Positions 698 through 15,874 are shown, counted from the first letter of the stretch. The stretch: DNA of 15,874 bases from a virus (IMGVR_UViG_2671180770_000015), one strand, 5' to 3'. Made by a program: numbers and translations. Notes: a model not told the origin generated them from the sequence alone.

Positions 698-1273
698 CTA
701 CGGCAGTGCTGGCCATTCAATATCCTGTGCAGTTGACGTATCAACACGGTTCAGCAATACCCGATACTTTTTCCATGCTTCCAGCAACGAGATTTCTTCC
801 TCCGTTGCAATTTCCAGATCTGCAGCATCCTGAAGCGGCGCAATATGCTCACTGGCTACCTGCATCAGGTTGTTTTTTGTTTCTTCCGCCTCCCGGATCC
901 GGAACAGTTTTTCTGCTTCCGTATCCTTCACCCAAGCTGTGCCGTTCCACTTCTGAAACTCCCCTTTCGGCGATAACCAGGTAACATTTTCCGGTAACGG
1001 ACCGAGTTCAGAAATAAATAACGCGTCGCCGGAAGCCACGTCATAGACGGTTTTTCCCCGATGATCTTCAACGAGATGCCACGATGCCTCATCACTGTTG
1101 AAAACAGCCACGAAGCCTGCCGGAATATCTGGCGGTGCAATATCGGTACTGTTTGCTGGCAGACCTGTATGAGGCGGAATATATGCGTCACCTTCACCAA
1201 TAAATTCATTAGTTCCGGCCAGCAGATTATAAATTTTTATGGTCCGTGCTTGTTCACTCATTCTGAATGCCAT
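698..1273 (-). CDS. tfa: Tail fibre assembly protein Tfa (lambda Tfa-like chaperone)
   Basis: 191-aa [42 protein letters not shown]..., near-identical to lambda Tfa as recalled. Its start codon overlaps the stf stop (TAATG at 1271-1275). Confidence 0.93.
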
Positions 1274-4236
1274 TATGCAAGCCTCACAATATAGTTAAAT
1301 GCGATGTTTTTGACGGTGTTTTCCGCGTTACCAGCAGCGTTAACGGTGATGGTGTGTCCATGTGAACCAATCGCAACGGAGTGCGTATGAGCACCAATAC
1401 TGACAGTATGTGCATGTGCGCCTGCGCTTGCAGCAGTGCCGGACAGCGAGTGGGTATGAGCACCATCTGATGATGTCTTCCCTGCATTACGAGTCTGGCC
1501 ACTACCGCTTGTTGTGCTCATAATCCCCGCGCTTAGATTTGAAATCGCGGTATAACCATTAGGGAAAATGCTCGTGTTCGTGCCACCAAATGCACCGGAA
1601 CTCTTGTGTTGGTGCGCACCGGCACTATTTGCAGTCCCGCTAATACTATGGGTATGCGCCCCGGTGTTATTCGTGGATTTGGTTCCGTAATCAAACGACG
1701 ATGTGTTTTTCGTCCCCAAATCCGTACTGGATGCGCTGGCGCTGTGGGTGTGCGATTTAATGCCGTCCTGTTCCTGAGACAATACGGCACGACCACTGGC
1801 GGGTTTGCCCTTAATCGTCCAGCCACGCATATCAGGGAGCACGCCTGACGGATAAGCGGCTGCAAGTTTCGGGTATGCAGATTTGTCAAAAGTCTGCCCC
1901 TGCATCAGGGCATAGCCAGACGGAACGGTATCTGATGGCCACGGGATTGGTGCGCCAGGCGGATAAAACTGCTCTGATGGCGTATAGAGTGAATAAACTG
2001 TACCGTCCGTTAACCCTTCCGGCTTATTAGCAGAATATGCTGGTGACGTATGAATCGTCACGCTGGCATTACTGGTATAATCCCATTGAATATTTACACC
2101 AGTCGCATAATTTCCGATTGCAACGTAAATATCGTAAGTATCACCAGATGTATTGACCCAGGCAAAATTTGTAAACCCTGTCGATGTGCGCTGCCATAAA
2201 GCACCAGTAATCCCCTTCGGATTACCATTACCTGCACGCAAAACAAGTTCAGATATACCTGCCTGTTGAGGTGACCCCACGTTAAATCCCGCGCCACCAA
2301 TCAACGTAATTGAAACAACAGAACTCGCCTGTGGCATGGTTACCGTTGCTAATTTGAACCAACCAGCACCACCACTGAATGACATTGTTGTTGAGTTAAG
2401 CGTACCAATATCTTTCGGCGTCAGTGTTATATCAGCTGAAAGCGCCTTACCATTCACCTTACGGGCAGAAGGTACCCGACCATTCGCATTATCATTAGCT
2501 GCTTTCACTGCTTTCGGTGTCGCAGCAAGCGTTTCAGATGCGCTGTTGGTTGCACTACTGAGCTGGACAATTCCTTTTTGTGTTGTCGTAGAGTCCTGAG
2601 CAGTATATTTCCCGTTAGCAAGGTCATAGGCTGCCTTTACCGACTTTGGCGTTGCCGCCAGCATTTCAGATGTGCTGTTGGTCGCGTTGCTAAGCTGAAC
2701 TATCCCTTTCTGTGCTGTCGTTGCATCCTGTGCGGTGTATTTCCCGTTAGCCAGCTCATACGCGGCCTTAACGGCTTTTGGCGTTGCCGCCAGTGACTCG
2801 GAAGTGCTGTTAGTCGCACTGCTGAGCTGTACTATCCCCTTTTTCGTCGTGCTCGCATCCTCAAGCGCCACGGCGGATGCAATATCCTCTGCCCGTTTTG
2901 CCGCTGTCTCGGCGCGCGTTGCCGCGGATTCCGCCGTACTTTTGCTCTGAGCTGCCGCCGTCGCACTGCCAGCTGCCTCTGTCGCCTTCGTGGATGCCGT
3001 CGTGGCGCTGCCCTTTGCTGCTGACGCCTGTCTGGTCGCCTCATCTTTTGAAGCAGACGCAGATGATGCCGATGACGCCGCCGAACTGGCGGACGATGCG
3101 GCAGCCGTTTTTGAGGATTCTGCGCTGGTTTCCGACGCTTTCGCGTTCGTCTCGGATGTCTTCGCTGCGGAAGCAGACCTCGCTGCTGCGCTGGCCTGTT
3201 CAGTGGCTTCGCCAGCCTTCGTTGTGGCTGTTGAAGCGGACGATGCGGCGCTTTCTGCCGATTTTCCGGCGGCGCTAGCACTGGCTGAGGCCTGCCCGGC
3301 ACTTGTTGACGCTGCACTGGCAGACGACGCAGCCGCTGTTTTTGAGCCTGCCGCAGCTGAGGCACTCTGTTCCGCTGCCGTTTCAGAAGACCTGGCGTTT
3401 GTCTCAGACGTCTTTGCCGCCTTCGCGGAATTGCCTGCCGCCGTTGCCGAGGAAGCGGCACTACTGGCGCTTGATGATGCGTTCGTTTCTGATGATTTCG
3501 CTGCCTCTTTTGAGGCCGCCGCATCCCGGGCTGAGGTGGCAGCTTCTGACGCCTTCGTGGTCGCGGCGGATGCAGAAGTAGCTGCTGATTGTTGTGACGC
3601 TGCCGCATTCGTTTCTGACGTTTTCGCCGCAGCGGCACTGGTAGCTGCCGCGCTTTTTGAGGACTCTGCAGCAGCAGCACTTTTCGATGCTTCACTGGCC
3701 TTTGTTGATGCCGTTCCTGCGCTGGAAGATGCTGACTGAGCAGATGATGCAGCCTGTCCGGCTGACGTGCTGGCGGCACGAGCTGAGCCTGCAGCATCGG
3801 TTGCATGAGTTGCCGCCTCACTGGCAGATGTGCTGGCATCACTGGCTGACTTCTTCGCGGCTGCCATGTTCTGTGCCACTGCGGACGCGTTACGCGCCAC
3901 CTCTTCCACCATCAGTTCAAAACGTCGCAGAGCCTCCGGACGGGCATCATCCTCCGTCATAGCACCGAGAAAATCATTCAGCGTACCGGGTCGGGAATCT
4001 TCATACACGGTGATGGTCCCGGCATGTGACGGCGGGAATCCTTCCACCAACAGAATAACGCTGTACTGACCGTACTCAACGTCCATGCTGTAACGCCCGG
4101 CTTCATCCGGATTTTCTGAGGCCAGCGTGTTCACCACCACCGCTGTGCTGTTACGTTTTGCTTTCAGCTGGATTGTGCAGTTCTGTACCGGTTTTCCTGT
4201 GCCGTCTTTCAGTACACCTGAAATCTTTACTGCCAT
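1273..4236 (-). CDS. stf: Side tail fibre protein Stf (lambda Stf-like), intact
   Basis: The ORF is 989 aa from a GTG at 4242; the likely true start is the ATG at 4236 ([26 protein letters not shown]...), matching the lambda Stf N-terminus. It has a long Ala/Ser-rich region, three tandem tail-fibre repeats, a His-rich GAHxH region and the C-terminus ...[11 protein letters not shown]. Confidence 0.93.
2476..2871 (-). repeat. Three tandem copies of a ~132-bp (44-aa) phage tail-fibre repeat inside stf
   Basis: Protein repeats ...KGIVQLS(S/N)ATNS(T/A)SE(S/M/T)LAATPK(A/S)VKAA... occur three times, with matching DNA periodicity around 2476-2871. Confidence 0.75.
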
Positions 4237-4247
4237 ATTCACCCCAC

Positions 4248-4273
4248 AAAAAAGCCCGCCTGAACAGGCGGGC
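4248..4273 (-). terminator. Rho-independent terminator immediately upstream of stf (downstream of the lom remnant)
   Basis: Minus-strand GCCCGCCTG-ttca-GGCGGGC followed by TTTTTTGTGGGG; the stem is 4254-4273 and the U-tract is the complement of the A-run at 4248-4253. Confidence 0.8.
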
Positions 4274-4300
4274 TGTCATAACACTGTGTTACCTGGCTAA

Positions 4301-4561
4301 TCAGAACTTATAACCGACACCCACGATGAAACCGTCAGTGCGCCAGTCACCACTGCCGGAGCCTTCATAAGCAATATCAATGGCCACGGATTCGGTCGGG
4401 TTAAACTGCACGCCAGCTCCCCACGCCAGAGACGTGTTGCTGTGGCGACCGTCATCACTTCCGGTCAGCACGTCGTGCGTTTTCCCCTTGTTGTCAGTTA
4501 CGCGGAGATAATCCCCGGAGAAAGTCGACACACGGCTGTAAGCCATACCGATATGCTCCAC
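4301..4561 (-). pseudogene. lom: Lom outer-membrane protein (Ail/Lom family), 3' fragment only (~80 C-terminal residues, no signal peptide)
   Basis: Translation ...SLAWGAGVQFNPTESVAIDIAYEGSGSGDWRTDGFIVGVGYKF matches the lambda Lom C-terminal beta-barrel strands; the N-terminal ~120 residues are absent. Confidence 0.85.
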
Positions 4562-5390
4562 TTAACCGACCACCATCACGGGCCTGCTGTTGCATAAAGT
4601 CCGCTGCCGCTTTTTTCCCAAGGTCATAAACCACCTTCAGGGCAGCCGGACCTATCTGCCCGTTCGTGCCATCGTTATTGATCTCGATGTTGTACTGCGG
4701 GGCAAACATCGCCATACCTGAACCACCAATATCCGCCACAACCCCCAGCTTACCGTCAGCACCACGACGCAGTGGCAGAATGGCTTCAGGTCCAGCTTCC
4801 CCCATCACACCCGCGCCTTTTGCAAAAGCAAAAAACGTCGGACGGTTAACCACCGTGCCACTGTAACGACTCAAATCAGCAGACTGATAAATCCCCCCAT
4901 TGGCATTCAGGGAAAGGCTGCTGAGATCAAATCCCAGTACACTGCCAATCCCTTTTATCGATTTCATCATGGTTGCCTGCGCCAGGATTTTCGCCATATC
5001 TGACAGCACCGAAGAGGTGAAGGATTTGAAGTTGAGTTTGCCGGTAGTGACAAAAGTTGCCAGGCCATTTCCCATGTTGCTGAAGGCTGACGAGAACACC
5101 TGTTCTGCTGTTCCTGCCGTATTGTCTGCATCCACGGTAAAATCCTGAAATGCACGCAGGACTCCGTTTTTCCAGTTACCCTGCACAACTTCAAGCTGTT
5201 GCCAGTAACGGCGATTCTCATTCAGTTGTCGGTTCAGGCTCTCCGTCAGCGCCTGCTCGGCCTTTCTGTAGTCATCCGTGTTATATGTCCCTTTCTGCTC
5301 ACTATCCCGCCTCAACTGCTCCAGCTGTTGCTGGTATTTCTGGCGAAGACTCAGTTGTACCTGATATCGCTGCCGCTGCTGATCACCCAT
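4494..5390 (-). pseudogene. Tail tape measure protein (lambda gpH-like), C-terminal ~280-residue remnant, reading through into the lom remnant
   Basis: Translation ...INNDGTNGQIGPAALKVVYDLGKKAAADFMQQQARDGG... matches the lambda gpH C-terminus. The native stop is missing and the frame runs a further ~17 codons into lom-derived DNA. A stop lies 9 nt upstream of the first Met, so the N-terminal ~550 residues are absent. Confidence 0.85.
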
Positions 5391-5548
5391 ACCTGGTTAT
5401 CTCCCGCAACGGTATTCCCGGCAACCTGCCGGGTGGCAACCGAGACCGCTTTCTGTGCCACACGGTTTATCGCCCATGCGCTGGCCTGTGGCACCATATG
5501 GGTATCAAGGCTGTTCAGATTGCGGATGGCATTCTCAAGCCCCTTCAT
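5351..5548 (-). pseudogene. Tail completion protein (lambda gpZ-like), N-terminal ~45-residue stub running out of frame into the tape measure remnant
   Basis: MKGLENAIRNLNSLDTHMVPQASAWAINRVAQ resembles the lambda gpZ N-terminus (MAIKGLEQAVENL...AMAINRVAS); similarity is lost after about residue 44 and the ORF terminates inside the tape-measure frame. Confidence 0.6.
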
Positions 5549-5559
5549 CCCACACCTCT

Positions 5560-5835
5560 TTACTCAATAAAGATCATTGGCTTACCATTAAAACGTTCAT
5601 GCCGTGTGACCGTCCATTGTTGTCCGTCATAAACAACGCGATCCCCGCGCCGTGGGCGGTATCCCGAAGAAAACACCACCAGAGAGACCGCAGGTCCGGA
5701 CAGAGCATTCAGCTCTGCCAGTGTTTCTCCCGGGATCACAGTCATATCGACATCATTAATCGAGGCTGTCTTTCCCATCTTTCTGACCGTGATAGCATCC
5801 ATACGCGCTGCCAGCCGGGAAAAGGGAGCAGACAT
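5560..5835 (-). CDS. Head-tail joining protein (lambda FII-like)
   Basis: 91-aa ORF; the pattern ...RRGDRVVYDGQQWTV... resembles lambda FII (...LRRGDTLTIGEENFWVDRV), and the gene sits between head and tail genes. Confidence 0.55.
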   Translation of the reverse strand: MSAPFSRLAARMDAITVRKMGKTASINDVDMTVIPGETLAELNALSGPAVSLVVFSSGYRPRRGDRVVYDGQQWTVTRHERFNGKPMIFIE

Positions 5836-6151
5836 TGAGTTTTACCGGCACTTCTTCTGCACTGGTTCCGGCATCTGCCCAGACAACCCCGACCAGCGGA
5901 TCAGAGCCGCTGTTAGTCAGCTGAACTTTTCCGGACTTCAGATAAACCTTCTTACCCGTTTTCATGTCATCCGTTTTCAGCTTAGGCAGCATAAACACAC
6001 CTTCGGTCATGCCGTCGCCTGTTTCACCCTGTGGAATATTGGTCAGCGCCACCGCAAAAACATCACCCACCTGCACCAGATCTCCGCTGCTGATGGCTGC
6101 ACTGGCAACAATCGCCACCGTTTTTCCTTCTTCTACAAAATTCTTTGCCAT
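5756..6151 (-). CDS. Phage head protein, DUF2190-like (putative capsid cement/decoration protein)
   Basis: The ORF track starts at 6196; the likely start is the ATG at 6151, preceded by GGAG (MAKNFVEEGKTVAIVASAAISSGDLVQVGDVFAVA...). Family assignment is from recalled sequence pattern and position immediately after the capsid gene. Confidence 0.5.
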   Translation of the reverse strand: MAKNFVEEGKTVAIVASAAISSGDLVQVGDVFAVALTNIPQGETGDGMTEGVFMLPKLKTDDMKTGKKVYLKSGKVQLTNSGSDPLVGVVWADAGTSAEEVPVKLNVCSLFPAGSAYGCYHGQKDGKDSLD

Positions 6152-6194
6152 AACTGTCTCCGCACAGCCCCGTTCAGGGGCTGATTTCAGGTAC

Positions 6195-6214
6195 AAAAAA
6201 AGCCCTTACGGGCC
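6195..6214 (-). terminator. Putative weak intrinsic terminator just downstream of the capsid gene
   Basis: Minus-strand GGCCCGTAAGGGC hairpin followed by seven T (complement of the A-run at 6195-6201). Confidence 0.4.
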
Positions 6215-6237
6215 ATCAGAGTTGTTGTCTGCGACGT

Positions 6238-8199
6238 TTACGCCGTACATTTCACCAGACCGCGGTGATCAACTGGCGCGACACCGGCGTCAATACGCAC
6301 TTTCGTTGTCACGCCATCCACACTGAAGCCCTCCATCTGATCAATATATGGCGTATCCACACCGTTGAGATAAGCCACTTCAATCGTATCGGAGCCTTTT
6401 GACGCAGCCAGGTAGAAGGTGGTCTGGCTGTTATCATCAAGACGAGGCTCTGCAATAACGGTCGCAAAATCTTTCACCGGGTTAATAATACCGGCGTTAA
6501 TGTCAGCCCCCTTGACACTTGAGGAGCGAATGACCTGGTTAGCAACAGACTCCATCGCCGTCGGTACCAGTACGAACGCAGGACGAATATTCAGATGACG
6601 CTCCCCCTCTTTCTGAACGCGCATCAACTGGCGGGCTTTATCCAGCGATGCCACGTCCATTGCAGCGCTCTCCAGTACGTTTGCATGTTTCGCTTTATCG
6701 AACAGACTTACATTATCTGTGGAGATTTTCGGGTTAGACGTCAGAATGGCATAAACCAGATCGGCAATAGTGGATTTCGCCGCACGGCCCAGTTTCATCG
6801 GGACATCGGTCAGCATATTCAGATCATCATTGATAATGGCCTGACGGGTGATACTGAACAGCTCGCCATAGGTCGCCAGTGCAATAGTGGCCTGTTTATC
6901 TCCGGTGGTGACGTATTTATATTCCGCCCCTTCACGCACCTGACGCAGAGCACTGAAGCCCCCCATACCCACACGATGGGCAATTTTAAAATCAGACAAC
7001 TGACCTTTCCGCGTCCACTGTTCATAGGTTTCAGGGGCATCTTCCCAGCCCTGCAGAATGGCTTTGTTCGCAACATCCAGCAGAATATTACCGAAGTCAG
7101 ACGTACTGTGTGTGAACGCCGCACCGACCATCTGCATCGGGTTATAACTGGAAACCCCAATACCCCGTTCAGTCAGTGACATACGGGCATATTCACGCAG
7201 GGTCATCCCGTTGTAGACATTATCACGTTCGGTTTTTTCAAATCCGGCACGCGCCATCAGCGCCTGGCGGATCCCGTCCCCCACAAAATTACCGTTACCG
7301 GCATAAATATGAGCCGGGGTATTTTTATTGGATGGCGTGGACTCGTGCCCCATCTCGTTCAACAGCTTTTCGCGGGCCTGCTCCAGCGAACATTCAGGAT
7401 CGGCAAGACACTGAGCCTGCAGCGACTGATAACGCCCGCCAAACATGGCAAACAGATCATTAATACCGTTTACACGCGCTTTTTGCTCTGCCAGGACCTG
7501 CGCACGGATGCTGTTTTCATCCACCACGGGTGCTGCTGCTGCCTGCACTGGCGTCCGGGAGGCTGCAGGTTCATCATCCTGTACGCGTGGAGCACTGTTG
7601 CGTGGCGGAGTAATCATGTTTCGAATGGATTCCGGCATCTTTTTAAATTCCTCTGTACGTTTTGACTGAATACATGCCATTGCCTTAACGGCTGGCGTTA
7701 CCTGATCAGCAAATCCATGTGCCAGACATTCGGCACCGGACATCCAGGTCTCATCCACCAGCATGGCAGCAATTTCATCGGTGGTTTTCCCGGTTTTCTG
7801 TGCATAAGCGGGTAACAGAACCGCCTCAACCTTATCGAGCAGGTCGGCATAGGTGCGCATGTCCTCCGCATCACCGCCCGTAAAGCCAAATGGTTTATGA
7901 ATCATCATGAAGGTGTTTTCCGGCATAATGACCGGGTTTCCCACCATCGCAATGACCGACGCCATTGACGCCGCCACACCGTCGACATAAACGGTAATGG
8001 ACGCACCATGTGTTTTCAGCGCATTAAAAATGGCGATGCCTTCAAAGACATCGCCACCCGGTGAATTAATATGGAGATTAATGTGGGTGATATCGCCCAG
8101 TGCATTCAGATCACTGATAAACTGCTTCGCTGTAACACCCCAGAAACCAATCTCGTCATAAATATAAATATCCGCGTCACTCTGGTGACCAGCCTGCAT
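6238..8199 (-). CDS. Prohead protease (ClpP/S14 family) fused to HK97-fold major capsid protein
   Basis: Single open frame 6238-8460. The N-terminal part has the ClpP-like motifs IYIYDEIGFWG and INSPGGDVFEGIAIFNAL; the C-terminal ~400 aa look like a major capsid protein. The likely start is the ATG at 8199 (MQAGHQSDADIYIY...); an alternative ATG at 8331 cannot be excluded. Confidence 0.8.
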   Translation of the reverse strand: MQAGHQSDADIYIYDEIGFWGVTAKQFISDLNALGDITHINLHINSPGGDVFEGIAIFNALKTHGASITVYVDGVAASMASVIAMVGNPVIMPENTFMMIHKPFGFTGGDAEDMRTYADLLDKVEAVLLPAYAQKTGKTTDEIAAMLVDETWMSGAECLAHGFADQVTPAVKAMACIQSKRTEEFKKMPESIRNMITPPRNSAPRVQDDEPAASRTPVQAAAAPVVDENSIRAQVLAEQKARVNGINDLFAMFGGRYQSLQAQCLADPECSLEQAREKLLNEMGHESTPSNKNTPAHIYAGNGNFVGDGIRQALMARAGFEKTERDNVYNGMTLREYARMSLTERGIGVSSYNPMQMVGAAFTHSTSDFGNILLDVANKAILQGWEDAPETYEQWTRKGQLSDFKIAHRVGMGGFSALRQVREGAEYKYVTTGDKQATIALATYGELFSITRQAIINDDLNMLTDVPMKLGRAAKSTIADLVYAILTSNPKISTDNVSLFDKAKHANVLESAAMDVASLDKARQLMRVQKEGERHLNIRPAFVLVPTAMESVANQVIRSSSVKGADINAGIINPVKDFATVIAEPRLDDNSQTTFYLAASKGSDTIEVAYLNGVDTPYIDQMEGFSVDGVTTKVRIDAGVAPVDHRGLVKCTA

Positions 8200-8335
8200 C
8201 CTGAACCAGGAATTATTCTTCGGACTGGTCGTCGGTGTGCTGCGGCTCCTGTCGTTTCGTTGCGGCACTGCTGCCTCCTTTATCACTGGCCGGATCGGTA
8301 TCAAATACCAGATCCAGCTTGCGGTTTTCATCAAT

Positions 8336-9154
8336 TTAGGCCTTGCGCCGACGTTTGACATCATCCGGATTACGACCACCAGCACGTACCCAGTCTGATT
8401 CTGTCGCCGCTCCACCACGAATCTGGATTTTCCAGGCCTCAGCCTCCTTAACAGGGTCAATCCACGGCATCACCGGTCCGGAATACACCGCGGTATACAG
8501 TGAAGAACGGTCAAGATCGCGGGGTAGCCTGATAACACCGGATGCCACAGCCTGTTTCAGCCAGGCACGATACATCGGGCGGGTGACGGCACCAATAAAC
8601 CAGTCCTGCAGGATCAGGTAGCCATCAGTAGACTCAACCAGTTCCTGACGCTGCGCGCTGTAAGTGCCGTTATAGTTGCGTGCCGTACTGGAAAAACTCA
8701 GACGACTGCCCGCCGCCACGGCACGCAACTGACCATTACGAAAAGTTTCAAGGTTAGGATTGGGACGATCCGACTTCACCATTCCGATTTCTTCGCCGGG
8801 TTTCAGATCGTCGTAAATAATGCCTGGCTGAATGGTAAGCTCGCGTTCATTCTCCTTGCTGCCATTACCATCCGGTTCATAGCTCTGCCCGTCGCCTTTC
8901 CGGATGTACATCCCCAGAGCAGCGGCGATCCTTGCTGCAGTCAGCTCAGAATCTTCATACTCTTTCAGAGCACTGAGGCGGATCAGCACACCGGACAACA
9001 AAGACGTCCCGCGCATCTGGTGCAGACGGCGAACAAATTTAAGATGCAGCATTCGCTCTGCATCCACTTCTTTGGTTTCCATCTGCCGCCCGGATACGGG
9101 ACGGCTTTTATACACCAGATATTTTTCGGGACACCCCCAGTCATCAACAAACAC
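8336..9154 (-). pseudogene. Portal protein (lambda gpB-like), C-terminal ~270 residues only
   Basis: Translation ...YSAQRQELVESTDGYLILQDWFIGAVTRPMYRAWLKQAVASGVIRLP... resembles the lambda B C-terminal half (...YSSARASANESWRYF...EEALLRGIIRPP); the N-terminal half is missing. Confidence 0.7.
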
Positions 9155-9186
9155 GCCCTGATTCAGCCTGTTGCTCTCATCACTGG

Positions 9187-10578
9187 TCAGCTGGCCGGAT
9201 CAATTCGCTGGCTCTCCCCGTCGCTGTCACCGCGCAATGACTGCGTGATGTTGTAACGATCAATAATCCAGCGTTCGCCACGGCTGCCATAGCCCGTTAC
9301 CTGAACCACAAAACGGCGATGACGTCCCGCCTGCACATCCACTGTCGCCACAAGGAAATTAACGCCATCCGGCACACTGCGGGAAGGAACTGGCTCTGCC
9401 CGCTGCTCAAGCAATTCACTTTTTCGTTGCTCCATGCTGGCGCGGGGAAGATAAGGTAATCCCCAGTCGGTATTGATAACCGTCTTGAGTGTCTCTTCAC
9501 TTCCGGTTGTCTCGTATTCCTGTTCTGCAGTAAGCAGTTTGTAAACGAGTTGCGAGAGTGTCTGATAAGCAGCTGCCGGACCCTCCATCCAGAATGACGC
9601 AATACGTGAACGCCGGGGATCACCATAACGACTGCCATCTGCATTGATGGATTCACCATCCCGTAACCAGACCCCACGTCCGTTCAGCTCGCGTTTTTGT
9701 TCAGGCAAAATCCGTCCTGAACAGGAAGGACACTGAATATAAGCCGCCTCACTTGCCAGCACAGGATCGGCAATATCACGGAAACCAGCAACCACATCGC
9801 CGCAGGGCTGAAAATACTCACCACAGTGTGGACAGGGCCAGTACCAGCGACGGCGATCGCCACGGTTATAGAGCGACAGGATCCCCGTGGTTGGTGGAGC
9901 CTCATGCGGTGAAGTCCGTCGCCATTTCACATCCTTCACATCCCTGCCGGGGGAACTCTCCACAAGCGTCATACCACTGGACATAAATGTGGTGGTACGT
10001 TTTGAGGCAAGAGAGAAGGCATCCCCCTCACCATCAATATCTTCCGGAAAACGGTCATAATCCGTCAGCGCCACGCATTTATAATCTGATGAAGACATGA
10101 TATTGACTGACGGCCAGCCGATTTTCAGGTAGTTGCCAGCAAGGAATGTTCTGTCATAAACGTTGTTGTCATTTTTGTTCGGACTCAGGCGACTGACCAC
10201 TTCCGGGCTGACGCGAAACGTTCTGGCGAGTCGTTTTTTGGAGTGTTCGCGGGCTTTTTCCTCCGTCATCTGAATGATCAGCATATCAGCAGGATCGCAA
10301 ATCACGTTGTAAATCACCCAGCCGTCAATCAGGCCGATAGTCTTGCCGGTTCGTGCCGGGCCAACAAATATCACTGCGTCGTATTCACGCGAGGCCAGGC
10401 AGTTCATCGGCTCAATAACATACGGTGCCACCAGCGGATCCCACGGGACTGAGTTCCCTGCCCCCATGGGCACCCGCATATACTGAGCAACGGCATCAGC
10501 AACCCGCATTCGTCTCGGTGCGCGAAGGATATAACCTGAATCGGTTCGTGCTGCCTTTGCGGTTTCCTGATTCAGCAT
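9187..10578 (-). pseudogene. Terminase large subunit (lambda gpA-like), truncated to 463 aa (lambda gpA is ~640 aa)
   Basis: WYWPCPHCGEYFQ matches the lambda gpA FHVACPHCGEEQY region, and the ORF ends at ...WIIDRYNIT..., equivalent to about gpA residue 480. The downstream sequence is portal-derived, not terminase. The start overlaps the terminase small subunit stop (ATGA). Confidence 0.8.
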
Positions 10579-11072
10579 TACTCCTCCTGCTGTAATTCCT
10601 CCTCATCATCCGCACCTGCTTCAGTCACCCGCAGGGCTATCTGATCGCGCAGATCATCAATAATGGACTGAACACGGCTCACAGCGGCAGGCTGCAGACC
10701 GCAGTCACGTTCCAGAATATCCGGTAATGTCTCCAGCACCTGCACGACCGCTTTTGCCCAGATGGCAAACTCCCGTCTGACATCACTGGCCGGAATGAGT
10801 TGCGCCGTTTCCTGTTCGAACTTAAGACGCTCACGTTCAGACTGATACCTGGCTTTGCGCTCATGCGCGTCCATTTCGCCTTCTGCAACCGGCGGTGGTA
10901 ATGCCAGAAATGCCGACACAATATCAACCACCCGATAAAGCTTGAGGTTGCTTTCATGCCCCCCTGCAACGGGTAGATTTTGCAGCCTTGCCGCAGCAGT
11001 CTGGCGATGTACACCTGACAGTGCCGCCAGTTGACTGATATTCAGCGTCAGATTTTTTAACTCTCGATCCAT
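10578..11072 (-). CDS. Terminase small subunit (Nu1-like DNA packaging protein with N-terminal HTH)
   Basis: 164-aa ORF with an N-terminal helix-turn-helix-like segment (LTLNISQLAALSGVHRQT), an acidic C-terminus, a GGAG ribosome-binding site and a position between cos and terminase large. Confidence 0.7.
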   Translation of the reverse strand: MDRELKNLTLNISQLAALSGVHRQTAAARLQNLPVAGGHESNLKLYRVVDIVSAFLALPPPVAEGEMDAHERKARYQSERERLKFEQETAQLIPASDVRREFAIWAKAVVQVLETLPDILERDCGLQPAAVSRVQSIIDDLRDQIALRVTEAGADDEEELQQEE

Positions 11073-11236
11073 ACCCGCTCCAGAATGTTTTAAACATGCA
11101 TCTTGCGAACGACTTTAGGCAAACGGTGTTAGTGATGAACAAAAAACAATCAAAATCGACACCACAAAAATAAAAATACTGTAATATCAATCTATTACAG
11201 TAGTGGTGATGACGGATGAAATTTCAAAAACTAGCC

Positions 11237-11300
11237 TTTTTCCGCGACGCTCCCGCCCCGTGGCAGGGGCCCCCACCGGGAGGACCCGACAGCCTGACAG
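11237..11300 (-). other. cos site (cosN/cosQ-like cohesive-end region)
   Basis: The minus-strand sequence GGGTCCTCCCGGTGGGGGCCCCTGCCACGGGGCGGGAGCGTCGCGG resembles lambda cosQ/cosN (GGGTCCTTTCCGGTGATCCGACAGGTTACGGGGCGGCGACCTCGCGG) and lies ~170 bp upstream of the terminase small start. Confidence 0.55.
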
Positions 11301-11438
11301 CCGTGACGAGCATCTGATACAGCGCTTTACATAATGGCATAGGAATAATTCAGAAGGACATCACAGCATGCCCACACAAATTAGTGTGAGTGTCCTGTTT
11401 CTTCCTACGCACAGGACTGACGAGCATGAGGGGAAAAT

Positions 11439-11606
11439 ATGCGAACCATAAATGCCTCATCTTCAGCAATGCAGCCGGCATCCGAACAGGACGATATTGT
11501 AAATTCACCTAATTACGAGGACATTGCAGTAGTTGAATTGCAGCTCTGTATTAGCCTGACAGTGACAGAATGCGACATTGACTCTGTCACAGGTGAAATA
11601 GTTTGA
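11439..11606 (+). CDS. Hypothetical small protein (55 aa), not in the ORF track
   Basis: ATG at 11439 preceded by GAGGGG at about 7 nt spacing; translation MRTINASSSAMQPASEQDDIVNSPNYEDIAVVELQLCISLTVTECDIDSVTGEIV; no family recognised. Confidence 0.3.
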   Translation: MRTINASSSAMQPASEQDDIVNSPNYEDIAVVELQLCISLTVTECDIDSVTGEIV

Positions 11607-11626
11607 ATGATTAGCAGTTATGGTGC

Positions 11627-11833
11627 TCAGTCAACCACCAGGGAATAATCCTTCGAATTCTTATCGTGCTTCACCAACGCTGCCTCAATTGCCCTGAATG
11701 CTTCCAGAGACACCTGATGTTCTATACATGCAATTACAACATCCGGGTAACTCATAGAAATGGTGCTATTAAGCATATTTTTTACACGAATCAGATCCAA
11801 CGAGAGTTCATCAGCAGATTGTTCTTTATTCAT
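11627..11833 (-). CDS. Small prophage protein, YbcW/YnfO-like (68 aa)
   Basis: 68-aa [60 protein letters not shown]...; recalled similarity to small proteins found beside Nu1 homologues in K-12 cryptic prophages. Confidence 0.5.
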
Positions 11834-12133
11834 TTTGTCGCTCCATGCGTTTGCTCGTCATCTAGCGGTTAAAATATTACTTCAAATCTTTCTGCATAAA
11901 AGAGGAAAAGTATGAAAGTTTGAGTACATCGACCTTACATACATCTGTCGGTTGCATATCCCTCCTGGATGCCAGCAAGGCTCAACTTTGTTACGCAATC
12001 AACACTATTCATTAAAAACAGGCTTAATATTTGACATAAATCATCAACAAAACACAAAGAGGTCAGACCAGATTGAAACAATAAACACGATAATGCAAAC
12101 TACGCGCCATCGTATCACATGGAAGGTTTGCCA

Positions 12134-12544
12134 ATGGCTCAGGCTGCCATTTTTAAAGAAATATTCGATCAAGTGCGTAAAGATTTAAACTGTGAATTAT
12201 TTTATTCTGAGCTAAAACGTCACAATGTCTCACTTTATATTTACTATTTAGCCACAGATAATATTCACATTGTGTTAGAAAACGACAACATAGTGTTAGT
12301 AAAAGGACTCAAAAAGGTTGTAAATGTTAAATTCTCCAGAAACAAACATCTTATAGAGACCTCCTATAATAAGTTGAAATCAAAAGAAATCACATTTCAA
12401 CAATACAGGGAAAATCTTGCTAAACCAGGAGTTTTCCGATGGGTTACAAATATCCAGGAACACCAAAGATATTACTATGCCTTTGATAACTCATTACTAT
12501 TTACTGAAAGCATCCAGAAAACTACACAGATCTTACTACGCTAA
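12134..12544 (+). CDS. ydfO: DUF1398-family prophage protein (YdfO/YbcV-like), 136 aa from the second Met
   Basis: The ORF track starts at 12119; the ATG at 12134 ([11 protein letters not shown]...) is preceded by GGAAGG. Assignment is from length and synteny with the Qin cspI-gnsB-ydfO cluster, not a sequence match I can verify. Confidence 0.45.
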
Positions 12545-12644
12545 ACCATAACGTCCGACTTCTCTCACTCCTGAGCCGGACTGCATTGGTTTAATAAAAA
12601 CCATCAACAATTGTGATTTAGATATTCGGAACCATTCAAATATA

Positions 12645-12685
12645 ACAAAACCCCGTAAAAACGAGGTTTATGGATAAATTTTATT
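12645..12685. terminator. Bidirectional hairpin between convergent ydfO-like and gnsB-like genes
   Basis: AACCCCG-taaaaa-CGAGGTT hairpin at 12649-12668 with T-rich flanks on both strands. Confidence 0.4.
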
Positions 12686-12868
12686 ATTGAATACATCAGA
12701 TTAAATTAATCTTGACATCATAGCTTTCAAGACCCGTCATTTTTTCCCGTGCGGTAAACTGAATACTGGTAACTTCTTTCCCGGTCTTTTTCTTAAGTTC
12801 AATAATTTTTTTGTTATATATTCAGAAATATCTGCTTCTGCTTTTGTTTTTAAGTCTTCAATATTCAT
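12686..12868 (-). pseudogene. gnsB: GnsA/GnsB-family small protein gene, disrupted by a frameshift in a homopolymer run
   Basis: Minus-strand start MNIEDLKTKAEADISEYITKK, then after a 7-base A-run (plus-strand T-run at 12806-12812) the GnsA/B-like sequence IIELKKKTGKEVTSIQFTAREKMTGLESYDVKINLI continues in another frame. The frame is restored by a single-base insertion in this run (8 A instead of 7). Confidence 0.6.
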
Positions 12869-13038
12869 CATTTCCTCTTTTAGTCTGTTATGACTTTCCA
12901 GTTAGACAGTAAGTCGATTATATGGTGCAAACGTGTAAAAGATAAGATGAAACATCGCAATAATCAACATACGATAGTCTAAATTTTACACAAACAGACA
13001 AAGAGAATTTCCCGAATTATCAATGCAATAGCATCAAA

Positions 13039-13230
13039 TCAACTCAAGAGCCTTATTGCTGCTTCCAGAATTTCTTCTGAAGTAACATGTCGATCCGCGG
13101 CTACATAAATGACTTTATGATCTCCGGTCAGAGATGGAAACCCTGCGGCCATTACAGTAAGGTGTGTTTTTTCGCCATTTGGATATTCACGCATGATGGT
13201 GTTAACTCCAGTCATCGCTGGCACTACCAC
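13039..13230 (-). CDS. Hypothetical protein (63-aa ORF; possibly a longer protein interrupted by a homopolymer frameshift)
   Basis: ORF MVVPAMTGVNTIMREYPNGEKTHLTVMAAGFPSLTGDHKVIYVAADRHVTSEEILEAAIRLLS from a GTG start. Upstream, an ATG at 13270 (MKKIIVFF) would join this frame if the 9-base A-run at 13246-13254 (on the + strand) were 8 bases. Confidence 0.4.
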   Translation of the reverse strand: MVVPAMTGVNTIMREYPNGEKTHLTVMAAGFPSLTGDHKVIYVAADRHVTSEEILEAAIRLLS

Positions 13231-13312
13231 TGCTGGTTCAGAGTTAAAAAAAAACTATGATTTTTTTCATGATGTTACCGTAGTATGTGAGTATCCATCG
13301 AATAGACACCAA

Positions 13313-13352
13313 GCAAAAAAGCTCCCGAAGGAGCCTTCATTTTCACTTTTTT
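13313..13352. terminator. Intrinsic terminator (bidirectional hairpin) downstream of the cold-shock gene
   Basis: GCTCC-cgaa-GGAGC at 13321-13334, flanked by AAAAAA (13315-13320) and T-rich sequence; gives a U-tract on the minus strand. Confidence 0.65.
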
Positions 13353-13541
13353 AAATCCAACGACAGACGGCTGGCATTTAAGTATTGTGAAATATTATCA
13401 AATGTAATCATCATTGATTTACAAAAGATACATTTTGCCCCGAAAGGATTCATGTCAGAAACATCAAAAGATGATGTTCTATACTGGGAACCATGACAAC
13501 ACGGGCATCTAAAGTGAATATGGTTTGTAATATTGTCTACC

Positions 13542-13754
13542 TCAAAGCGCCACTACATGAACAGCGGCAGGACCTTTAGGTCCGTTCTCAATACCAAATT
13601 CAACTTCCTGATTCTCAGTTAATGTTTTGAAATCGTTGCTCTGAATTGCTGAGAAATGGACAAACACATCTTTGCTGCCATCTTTCGGCGTGATGAAACC
13701 AAAACCTTTTTCAGGGTTAAACCATTTCACTAAACCAGTCATTTTGTTAGACAT
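13542..13754 (-). CDS. cspI: Cold-shock protein, CspA family (CspI-like)
   Basis: 70-aa [41 protein letters not shown]... with the RNP1/RNP2 cold-shock domain motifs; symbol assigned by synteny with the Qin lysis cassette. Confidence 0.9.
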
Positions 13755-13920
13755 AATTATTACCTTTTGAAGAAATTAGCCCTTGGGCAGAATGGTCCGA
13801 AAAAAAATATCAGAGAGAAAAACCAACAAGGAAATCTCAAGAGGTACAAATAATAAAATTATAACAATGACTGCTTCAGATAAATTTGTAACAAACCAGA
13901 ACACCATTAACGCATGATTA
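13755..13920 (-). promoter_or_regulatory. Probable long AT-rich 5' leader and promoter region of the cold-shock gene (extent uncertain)
   Basis: About 360 bp of AT-rich non-coding sequence lies between the Rz stop (14117) and the csp start (13754); CspA-family genes typically have long structured 5' UTRs. No promoter hexamers could be placed with confidence. Confidence 0.3.
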
Positions 13921-14116
13921 ACCACCCATAGCAAGGATTACTTTTGTAAAGAAAAACACAGCAATGAAAGAATAGCTTTATTTATTAATAAAACGTGTCA
14001 TTCTGATTAAGACCTTTTATCTTACCCTTAAGATTTCAGGAATTTTGGCTCATGGAAGAGTCCTTTTTATTTAAATTTTACATTCCGCGATGTAAATGTT
14101 CCGATTTAATATTACC

Positions 14117-15140
<1,024 letters not shown>

Positions 15141-15144
<4 letters not shown>

Positions 15145-15452
15145 AGATATTTATGATGAGGACGCTCGTGCTTATTGGCAGGATTTTCAATCTTAAAGGA
15201 GTACTGATGCTGCAGATAAGACTCAACTTTTTCTGACAATTTTTCTGCTACTTCCAGGAAGACTTGCCGGACGCTCCTTCTGGCTGCTGCCTCATAAAAC
15301 TCCAGCGCAGCTCCTTCAACACGGTCCATGGCGACATCCAGGTCAAAAATTTCACCGTCAAAGCGTTCTTTGTCCTGTAAGGCTACAGTTACCGTAACTT
15401 TATTCTCAAAATTACGGACTCCTTTCACAACCAGTTCATAGTCTTGAGTCAT
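15141..15452 (-). CDS. ydfR: YdfR-like protein (DUF1327), conserved between holin and endolysin in Qin-type lysis cassettes
   Basis: 103-aa ORF lying between holin and endolysin; its stop overlaps the endolysin start (ATGA). Identification is by position and length. Confidence 0.65.
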
Positions 15453-15456
15453 TGGA

Positions 15457-15672
15457 TTACTCTCCTCTCGCAGCCTTACGCCTGTCTTCTTTAATCTTGA
15501 AATAAAGATTTGTCAGATACGTCAGCAGGCCAAATACCAGGCTACCCAGCACACCTATTGCTGCCCACTGTGAGGGCGTGACTTTATCGAGCAGCTGTAA
15601 AAACCAGTAGCCAGCACTGCCTGCGGAGGTGCCGTAGGCAATGCCTGTTGAAATTTTGTCCATGGATTTCAT
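15457..15672 (-). CDS. essQ: Class II pinholin (S21-like) with dual-start motif
   Basis: The 71-aa form starts at the ATG at 15672, preceded by [38 protein letters not shown]... closely matches phage 21 S21 as recalled; the Met1-Lys-Ser-Met4 arrangement gives antiholin and holin starts. The upstream extension in the ORF track is unlikely to be translated. Confidence 0.85.
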
Positions 15673-15774
15673 AGCCTCACCTCCGCACGGAACGGATGGC
15701 ATAGTTATTATGTGTAGGCTTCCAGACACATCAATCAGAACCTTAATTGATATATATGCTGGAGACGATGCAAT

Positions 15775-15874
15775 GGCTTTGTTGAATAAATCGAACTTTT
15801 GCTGAGTTGAAGGATCAGATCACGCATCCTCCCGACAACACAGACCATTCCGTGGCAAAGCAAAAGTTCAGAAT
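15775..15874 (+). mobile_element. Partial IS903-group (IS5 family) insertion sequence, terminal 100 bp only; element body would continue beyond the right window edge
   Basis: Begins GGCTTTGTTGAATAAATCGAACTTTTGCTGAGTTGAAGGATCAGATCACGCATC..., which I recall as the IS903 end including its terminal inverted repeat; exact inverted copy of 1-100. Confidence 0.7.

Follow-up and report, generated by a model that had tools for sequence, protein, structure and literature searches.

What is the AT-rich block of small genes that lies between the packaging and lysis genes of the viral sequence IMGVR_UViG_2671180770_000015, and how many transcription units does it contain? The block was studied within a 15,874-nucleotide (nt) stretch of DNA (hereafter the window; + and - denote strands), in which a first-pass annotation had placed, at 11100-14116, an AT-rich accessory island with a cold-shock gene and had proposed that each of its genes is an independent, moron-type unit. 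We found that the block is the accessory arm of an E. coli prophage of the Qin/lambda type, and that it was already known, since it is an annotated and partly characterised part of E. coli prophages. Very probably it represents the right arm of such a lambdoid prophage, from the last lysis gene to the cos site, filled with a moron mosaic of about four units. The first-pass annotation had missed that the block is an annotated, named part of the Qin prophage of K-12; it had also missed a frameshift in gnsB and the cos site itself, which lies inside the interval 11100-14116.

The segment 10500-15874 matched 5303 of 5426 complete E. coli genomes, and in 629 of these at least 80% of it was found in one place. 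The best match, NZ_CP070902, was 99.2% identical over 6.5 kb, with only two real insertions or deletions, both in homopolymers. The cryptic prophage Qin of K-12 showed 96.6% nucleotide identity across window 12056-15699, and its segment ydfO-gnsB-ynfN-ynfR-ynfQ-cspI-rzpQ-rrrQ-ydfR-essQ (b1549-b1556) agreed with the window in genes, order and strands. RefSeq gives the same order for NZ_CP070902 and K-12, namely essD/essQ, ydfR, rrrQ, rzpQ (with rzoQ inside), cspI, ynfQ (labelled ymcF in the closer relative), ynfR, ynfN, gnsB and, on the opposite strand, ydfO. CspI, YnfQ, YnfR and RzpQ of the window were 100% identical to the K-12 proteins, and the Pfam families matched were CSD, YmcF-like, GnsAB, DUF1398, DUF2514, DUF1327 and DUF1441.

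Because the relevant genes are all on the minus strand, the late operon runs from right to left. Its last lysis-cassette gene, rzpQ (14117-14614, -; Rz-like spanin, Pfam DUF2514, E = 7.7e-39), forms the right-hand flank of the island, and the rzoQ lipoprotein gene is embedded there in another frame, within the open reading frame (ORF) 14167-14439. The left-hand flank, and the first gene past cos, is the gene for the small terminase subunit (10578-11072, -; Pfam DUF1441, E = 5.6e-39; PHROG 141, labelled 'terminase small subunit', E = 6.8e-72). Left of ydfO, ynfO takes the place of the ybcW-like gene in K-12 Qin, which there also has a lambda-Nu1-type nohA joined to a tail-fibre remnant, whereas the window continues with the ybcW-like gene, a cos site, the DUF1441 small terminase subunit and more head genes. 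Beyond ydfO, the closer relative has a hypothetical gene of 68 amino acids (aa), the DUF1441 gene and the large terminase subunit.

Base composition sets the arm apart from its surroundings. In 500-nt windows the GC content was 0.51-0.55 across the head and tail genes (4000-11000), 0.47-0.48 at 10750-11750, 0.33-0.39 at 11750-14250, and 0.48-0.50 in the lysis genes after 14250. A maximum-likelihood segmentation of 6001-15874 with two breakpoints put the breaks at 11490 and 14165 (GC 0.524 / 0.357 / 0.476), with a log-likelihood gain of 102 compared with a maximum of 10.3 among the 20 shuffles that served as the null. The shift away from the structural genes is thus real and far above chance, as the first-pass annotation had described, and its placement of the island between packaging and lysis genes was likewise confirmed. 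Its right limit, 14116, coincides exactly with the stop of the spanin gene, whereas its left limit, 11100, is some 400-500 nt too far to the left: from the segmentation and the GC windows, the drop begins at about 11490 and the AT-rich core starts at about 11500-11630. Positions 11100-11258 hold the cosB region and the small-terminase leader, which lie left of cos and belong to the other virion end. No inverted repeats of at least 12 nt were found within 11000-14200, and the only direct repeat there was one 17-nt pair near cos; nothing in this search pointed to an insertion element at the borders of the island. The equivalent arm is AT-rich elsewhere too, with a GC content of 0.40 in lambda (versus 0.505 in S-R-Rz) and 0.367 in K-12 Qin.

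The virion end is marked by a lambda-like cosN (11247-11262, -) with its nick at 11259/11258 and a putative 12-nt cohesive end, GGGCGGGAGCGT. We assigned it because the two termini of the linear phage Tritos genome (46,360 bp) fall at window 11259 (end) and 11258 (start), and because of the parallel with lambda: the genome ends read '...CCACG / GGGCGGGAGCGTCGCGG' in Tritos and '...TTACG / GGGCGGCGACCTCGCGGG' in lambda, GGGCGGGAGCGT matches the lambda sequence GGGCGGCGACCT in 9 of its 12 letters, and both sites are flanked by ACG and CGCGG. Downstream of cosN, at a distance of 186 nt, begins the DUF1441 small terminase gene. Lying where the Tritos genome has its ends and directly upstream of the small-terminase gene, the predicted site has the arrangement of a lambda-type cos. 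With cosN at 11259/11258, the right end of the virion chromosome is formed by the island. Just right of cosN, an 8-nt tandem unit, GGCTGTCA (11288-11302, -), is present in two copies in the window and three in Tritos, and the 17-nt direct repeat, ACAG(C/G)(C/A)(G/C)TGACGAGCAT, occurs at 11297-11313 and 11411-11427 with a spacing of 114 nt; both may be recognition elements for terminase or of the cosQ type.

The Rz-to-cos arm is the classic slot for lysogenic-conversion cargo (morons) in lambdoid phages. At the right end of lambda the order is Rz, bor, a DUF1398 ORF, a 68-aa ybcW-like ORF, a ynfO-like ORF and cos, and the window shares with lambda the slot between Rz and cos, a similar cosN, and an arm that is AT-rich relative to the lysis genes. 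Lambda 47023-48090 aligned to window 11481-12563 with 89.4% identity, a match that takes in the DUF1398 and ybcW-like gene pair in the same orientations. Lambda differs in having bor where the window has cspI-ynfQ-ynfR-ynfN-gnsB, in its ynfO-like ORF next to cos, which is absent from the window, and in its small terminase subunit, which is Nu1 rather than DUF1441. The DLP12 genes borD-ybcV-ybcW are presumably the equivalent of the lambda right end. Five complete phage genomes of 45-48 kb, Tritos (OV696610), mEp460_ev081, HannyBb, 2H10 and PhiR63_1, carry a csp-ynfQ-ynfN-gnsB module between Rz and cos. Tritos, on which a literature search found no paper, showed 99.1% identity to window 11259-14200, and its small terminase subunit, left of cos, is of another kind; in mEp460_ev081, 2H10 and PhiR63_1, the csp-to-gnsB module occurs without an annotated DUF1398 gene.

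Morons, in the sense of Hendrix and Juhala, are recognised by variable presence, deviant composition, a promoter and terminator of their own, and expression from a silent prophage; bor, which is expressed from the prophage, is the textbook example. In the arm studied here, genes are present or absent between shared flanks: an Rz-type spanin gene and the DUF1398/ybcW pair enclose bor in lambda and cspI-gnsB in the window, and the DUF1398 gene is sometimes missing among phages with the csp module. The base composition deviates from that of both sides (GC 0.357 versus 0.524 and 0.476). The description of the cargo as moron-type was therefore upheld.

A further relationship leads to the bacterial chromosome. 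Window 13758-13395 (cspI-ynfQ) showed 74.5% nucleotide identity to chromosomal cspG-ymcF, and window 12886-12695 (gnsB) showed 73.7% to gnsA; judged by this similarity, the two segments are paralogous to the chromosomal genes. The order cspG-ymcF-ymcE-gnsA also parallels that of the window, with a cold-shock gene, a YmcF-type protein, a middle gene and a Gns protein. It is in the middle that the two loci differ. In the K-12 chromosomal locus, which is not in a prophage, ymcE overlaps both of its neighbours (ymcF and gnsA) and no internal terminator was seen, whereas the window has ynfR with a terminator, a ynfN unrelated to ymcE, a 170-nt spacer and a candidate gnsB promoter.

The cold-shock gene is cspI (13542-13754, -), whose 70-aa product is identical to K-12 CspI, matches Pfam CSD (PF00313, E = 1.6e-31) and carries the RNP1 (KGFGFI) and RNP2 (VFVHF) motifs. 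Its leader and coding sequence (13515-13900, -) matched the cspA thermoregulator of Rfam (RF01766, 112.8 bits versus a gathering threshold of 78, E = 1.1e-28), and over the 271 nt upstream of cspI the window is identical to K-12. From this leader match and the K-12 identity, the CspA-family gene with a long leader that had been noticed earlier is cspI itself. Alignment with the upstream regions of K-12 cspA, cspB, cspG and cspI identified a cspA-type promoter (13900-13940, -) with a -35 element TTGCTA (13934-13929) and an extended -10 element TGcGTTAAT (13914-13906). Invariant in this alignment were TTGC (13934-13931), TG (13914-13913) and TTAAT (13910-13906), as well as the GGTTTG that opens the cold box (13897-13892) and a GCC.AA.GGC box near the ribosome-binding site. 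The Rfam model begins at 13900, and transcription would start near 13899, so that the structured 5' untranslated region (5'-UTR; 13755-13899), with its cold box, would be 145 nt long. The same length and a cold box are given for the K-12 cspI leader in the part of PMC6719143 that cites Wang et al. 1999, and the cspI 5'-UTR has been demonstrated to be an RNA thermometer (PMC13271884). Induction of K-12 cspI on temperature downshift is likewise stated where Wang et al. 1999 is cited in PMC6719143 and PMC13271884. CspI is a cold-induced chaperone of RNA and single-stranded DNA, and its loss lowers competitiveness in long-term stationary phase (PMC7406224).

Downstream of cspI, ynfQ (13343-13531, -) encodes a 62-aa, YmcF-like and four-cysteine, zinc-ribbon-like protein (PF23641, E = 6.9e-32), and its annotated ATT start codon lies 10 nt past the cspI stop. 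The 21-codon small ORF ynfR (13275-13340, -) starts 2 nt past the ynfQ stop, and its codons 2-9 form the hairpin of an intrinsic terminator (13338-13314, -; -14.9 kcal/mol, z = -2.8) that has a GC-rich stem and a UUCG loop followed by U6. This hairpin, which the consensus scan detected, is the sole terminator in the cspI-to-ynfN stretch. When four isolated phages with an overall identity of about 91% were aligned with the window, this hairpin, the terminator past gnsB and the TATAAT upstream of gnsB were all unchanged; in those four phages (loci L010-L013) ynfR is cut to 12 codons by a TAG, while it has 21 codons in E. coli prophages. What is conserved in the four diverged phages is the terminator, not the YnfR peptide.

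The next gene, ynfN (13039-13270, -; PHROG 3425 and 4911, of unknown function), retains the 51-aa form of K-12 intact (13039-13194). The 76-aa form of its relatives is frameshifted in the window by a T9 run (13243-13251). This run is T7 in K-12 Qin (51-aa YnfN), T8 in most relatives and phages (76-aa form) and T9 here, and its length decides whether the N-terminal extension is in frame; the variation could reflect a slippage-prone run or a sequencing error. A PDB sequence search found no relative of YnfN. The interval from the ynfR terminator to ynfN contained no promoter recognised by the consensus scan, and no promoter or terminator signals of their own were found for ynfQ, ynfR and ynfN.

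Data from K-12 indicate how these genes are expressed together. Hardly any YnfR-SPA was detected at 37 °C, and cold shock induced it strongly (PMC6001520); because the tag lies downstream of the terminator, its detection needs mRNA that has read through the hairpin (PMC6001520). AZT induced cspI 6.5-fold, ynfQ 5.9-fold and ynfN 5.8-fold, and their dependence on SspA was 38-, 42- and 51-fold, respectively (PMC11228462). In long-term stationary phase the log2 fold-changes of cspI (2.61/5.82/3.76/2.01) and ynfN (2.01/5.59/3.92/2.16) were nearly equal (PMC7406224). These data fit one cold-inducible unit, cspI-ynfQ-ynfR-ynfN, with a leaky internal terminator whose read-through we infer.

The gnsB gene (12696-12868, -) is present in the window in frameshifted form. 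An A run at about 12806-12812 is A7 instead of the A8 found in K-12 Qin, Tritos and all other phages compared, and the frame therefore shifts after codon 22. The A7 allele occurs in 41 of 2137 E. coli records, and the annotation of strain ER1709 marks the gene as 'frameshifted'; the window gene is either a pseudogene or the product of a homopolymer sequencing error. No full-length PF08178 match was obtained from an intact ORF of the window, but with one A restored GnsB matched the family over residues 1-54 of 54 (E = 5e-35) and also matched GnsA in the PDB (4XO1/4XO2). The earlier report of a GnsB-like gene was therefore correct as to the family, though only after this repair. About 50 nt upstream lies a perfect TATAAT (12917-12922, -) with a weak -35, a candidate -10 element conserved in 7 of 7 aligned loci; the consensus scan did not pick it, and its role as the gnsB promoter is predicted from sequence. 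Past the gene, the scan did identify an intrinsic terminator (12640-12669, -; -11.9 kcal/mol), the one that is invariant in the 91%-identical phages. Growth defects at low temperature are rescued by gnsA or gnsB carried on a plasmid (bioRxiv 10.1101/2024.03.27.586906), and overproduction of GnsA/GnsB is cited as raising unsaturated fatty acids, as measured for gnsA (bioRxiv 10.1101/2024.03.27.586906, citing Sugai et al. 2001).

Two genes lie between gnsB and cos. The DUF1398 gene of the ydfO/ybcV type (12134-12544, +) is antisense to the late operon; it matched PF07166 over the full profile (1-119 of 119, E = 1e-42), in agreement with the first-pass annotation, and PDB entry 2HH8, 'hypothetical protein ydfO' (E = 5.5e-65). 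The last gene before cos is the 68-aa ybcW-like gene (11627-11833, -), which is annotated as hypothetical or as YbcW, matched PHROG 657 (E = 5e-47), and is closely similar to the 68-aa ORF of lambda; searches for its protein found no Pfam family and no PDB relative. With it, the small ORFs reported for the island could be named, from the annotation of relatives and comparison with the K-12 proteins, as ynfQ, ynfR, ynfN and the ybcW-like gene. Three further ORFs, 11952-12188 (+), 13776-13934 (-) and 13287-13496 (+), were treated as chance ORFs, as the first two had no PHROG match and the third only a marginal one. A 55-aa acidic ORF between cos and the ybcW-like gene (11439-11606, +) matched PHROG 4035 over its full length (E = 1.2e-41); it is antisense to the late operon, unannotated in the RefSeq relative and in phage Tritos, and occupies the place of the ynfO-like ORF of lambda.

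Into how many units is this cargo divided? Raw counts from the consensus scan were uninformative, at three terminators versus 3.0 expected by chance and seven promoter-like sites versus 10.1 expected, and we therefore used position, fold energy and conservation instead. On these grounds two terminators were convincing (13338-13314 and 12669-12640) and a third, past ydfO, was weak, so that the several hairpin terminators first noted were reduced to two good cases and one poor one, in a raw number equal to chance. No terminator was counted past rzpQ (14030-14116, -; z = -0.28) or past the ybcW-like gene (11540-11626, -; z = -0.34), as in both regions the sequence folds no better than its shuffled counterparts. 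The cspI unit has its conserved cspA-type promoter and the terminator at 13338-13314, and gnsB has a terminator, the conserved TATAAT and a weak -35. We arrived at about four units, cspI-ynfQ-ynfR(-ynfN), gnsB, ydfO on the opposite strand, and the ybcW-like gene, rather than one per gene, because of the tight spacing, the lone terminator, the lack of a ynfN promoter and the co-regulation in K-12.

It is accordingly unlikely that the island consists of single-gene morons, each equipped with a promoter and a terminator. Two well-placed terminators and a weaker third, the conserved TATAAT before gnsB, the opposite orientation of ydfO and the independent presence or absence of sub-modules among phages all speak for separate units, and to the extent of about four units the original proposal stands. 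It is not supported for cspI, ynfQ, ynfR and ynfN, which appear to share one unit: the gaps of 10 and 2 nt between the first three leave no room for signals, the scan found no promoter ahead of ynfN, two K-12 data sets show co-regulation of cspI, ynfQ and ynfN (PMC11228462, PMC7406224), and YnfR-SPA requires a transcript that passes the terminator (PMC6001520). In the paralogous cspG locus, moreover, ymcF, ymcE and gnsA overlap.

The favoured reading, then, is that the right arm of a Qin/lambda-type prophage carries a mosaic cargo of some four units, which mostly share the direction of the late operon. In the cold unit, a cspA-type promoter would feed the 145-nt thermosensing leader and then cspI, ynfQ and ynfR, with a leaky terminator before ynfN. 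gnsB would probably have its own promoter and a strong terminator, and is disrupted here by the 1-nt homopolymer change; ydfO would be expressed from the opposite strand, and the ybcW-like gene would form the unit beside cos. In the lysogenic state, own signals would drive expression of these units, and the leader would make cspI active chiefly at low temperature. In the lytic cycle, late transcription antiterminated by Q would, on the lambda paradigm, read through all minus-strand genes. The role of the arm would most likely be lysogenic conversion that adds genes for cold and stress adaptation.

Several points weigh against this reading. The prophage is internally deleted, with its terminase and portal genes fused and tail genes missing, and for this reason late-operon read-through would have no role in virion production here. 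The statements on function, namely cold induction, thermometer activity, co-regulation and the GnsB phenotype, are all transferred from the literature on K-12, whose sequence is 96.6-100% identical, and should be taken as predictions for the window. Since gnsB is out of frame, this part of the cargo may be dead, if the change is not a sequencing error, and in the simple scan the number of hairpins showed no excess above chance.

Some of these points could be taken to mean that the island is just the decaying debris of a dead prophage, with mutational erosion rather than functional cargo behind its high AT content and its small ORFs. The prophage is indeed defective, with a truncated large terminase abutting a portal fragment, a tape-measure fragment abutting the tail fibre and a truncated Pin invertase, and frameshifts affect both gnsB and the long ynfN form in the window. 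We nevertheless consider erosion a very improbable explanation: the same module sits in isolated phages, CspI, YnfQ and YnfR are identical to the K-12 proteins, and the ORFs, terminators and -10 element are kept in phages that are 91% identical overall. The K-12 genes are also expressed and regulated, deletion of cspI has a fitness phenotype (PMC7406224), and the equivalent arm of intact lambda is AT-rich as well. Equally hard to credit is that the block serves mainly in anti-phage defence or as a toxin-antitoxin cassette rather than in cold adaptation, GnsB being the toxin, YnfN its antitoxin and the cold-shock-domain protein an effector. This idea draws on the label 'addiction module toxin' that RefSeq and Pfam give to GnsA/GnsB, on the listing of ymcE-gnsA among E. 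coli type II toxin-antitoxin pairs (PMC8484670), on the position of ynfN upstream of gnsB, where an antitoxin would be expected, and on a match of CspI to a PADLOC cold-shock-domain model (E = 3e-15). The PADLOC match, however, merely reflects the ubiquitous cold-shock domain, and the only other match was a marginal one of YdfO to a restriction enzyme (E = 4e-4). No similarity of YnfN to YmcE was found, the best local alignment scoring 15, and ynfN is not an overlapping partner of the YmcE type, as it lies 170 nt from gnsB with a candidate promoter in between. Frameshifted gnsB also occurs alongside ynfN in 41 records, with no sign of addiction. On the generic CspI and marginal YdfO matches and the unrelatedness of YnfN to YmcE, we rejected this as the main explanation.

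As a discovery the arm carries little weight, since the K-12 annotation already names its genes, experiments have been published on cspI and its thermosensing leader, and the Rz-cos slot is known from textbooks as a place for accessory genes of lambdoid phages. What the analysis usefully provides is a clean annotation of where the arm starts, of cos, of the parts held in common with lambda and with the cspG locus, of the gnsB frame and of the approximately four units. The point of remaining biological interest is whether the terminator inside ynfR is a site of regulated read-through. Csp proteins are transcription antiterminators. A cold-conditional switch, in which the ynfR-embedded terminator would let transcription reach ynfN, and possibly gnsB, only upon cspI induction, is conceivable but rather doubtful. 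Formation of the hairpin might be blocked by ribosomes coupled from ynfQ into ynfR, or by accumulating Csp proteins. Such a switch is allowed by the cold induction of YnfR-SPA (PMC6001520), by the way ynfN tracks cspI (PMC11228462, PMC7406224), and by the invariance of the hairpin while YnfR is not invariant. If it exists, a single cold cassette carried by the phage would link an RNA chaperone with a membrane-fluidity factor.

Elsewhere in the window, we observed several defects of the prophage. In the region 8336-10578 (-), the large terminase ORF ends after 463 aa, its nuclease domain being cut at position 116 of a 294-position profile, and at a junction near 9188 it is directly adjoined by the C-terminal portion of a portal gene of the lambda type (profile 158-354). 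The junction is an internal deletion of the terminase C-terminus and the portal N-terminus, and it was contiguous in none of the 5426 complete E. coli genomes; in other genomes the terminase gene is also broken near this point, but there a tail gene follows. A C-terminal tape-measure fragment (4494-5390, -) nearly adjoins the side tail-fibre gene (1273-4242, -), so that the distal tail genes appear to be deleted and the prophage is defective. At the left edge, a Pin-type invertase (10-600, +) is truncated at its N-terminus: similarity to K-12 PinQ begins at about residue 31, a stop codon interrupts the upstream frame, and the catalytic N-terminus is missing.

Matches to two RNA families were also found among the tail-fibre genes. 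IS009 (Rfam RF02111) gave a full-length match of 220.9 bits at 732-930 (-), inside the tail-fibre assembly gene (698-1273). The Hfq-binding RNA isrG gave two weak matches (32.7 and 21.1 bits versus a gathering threshold of 100) at 3231-3661 (+), within the GC-rich repeat part of the tail-fibre gene, and these are probably due to chance or driven by the repeats. At the other end of the window, similarity to the closest relatives fades at the holin gene, where 37 of 54 substitutions relative to NZ_CP070902 fall in 15500-15699; the alignments of both relatives stop at 15699, pointing to a further mosaic junction upstream of the lysis cassette.

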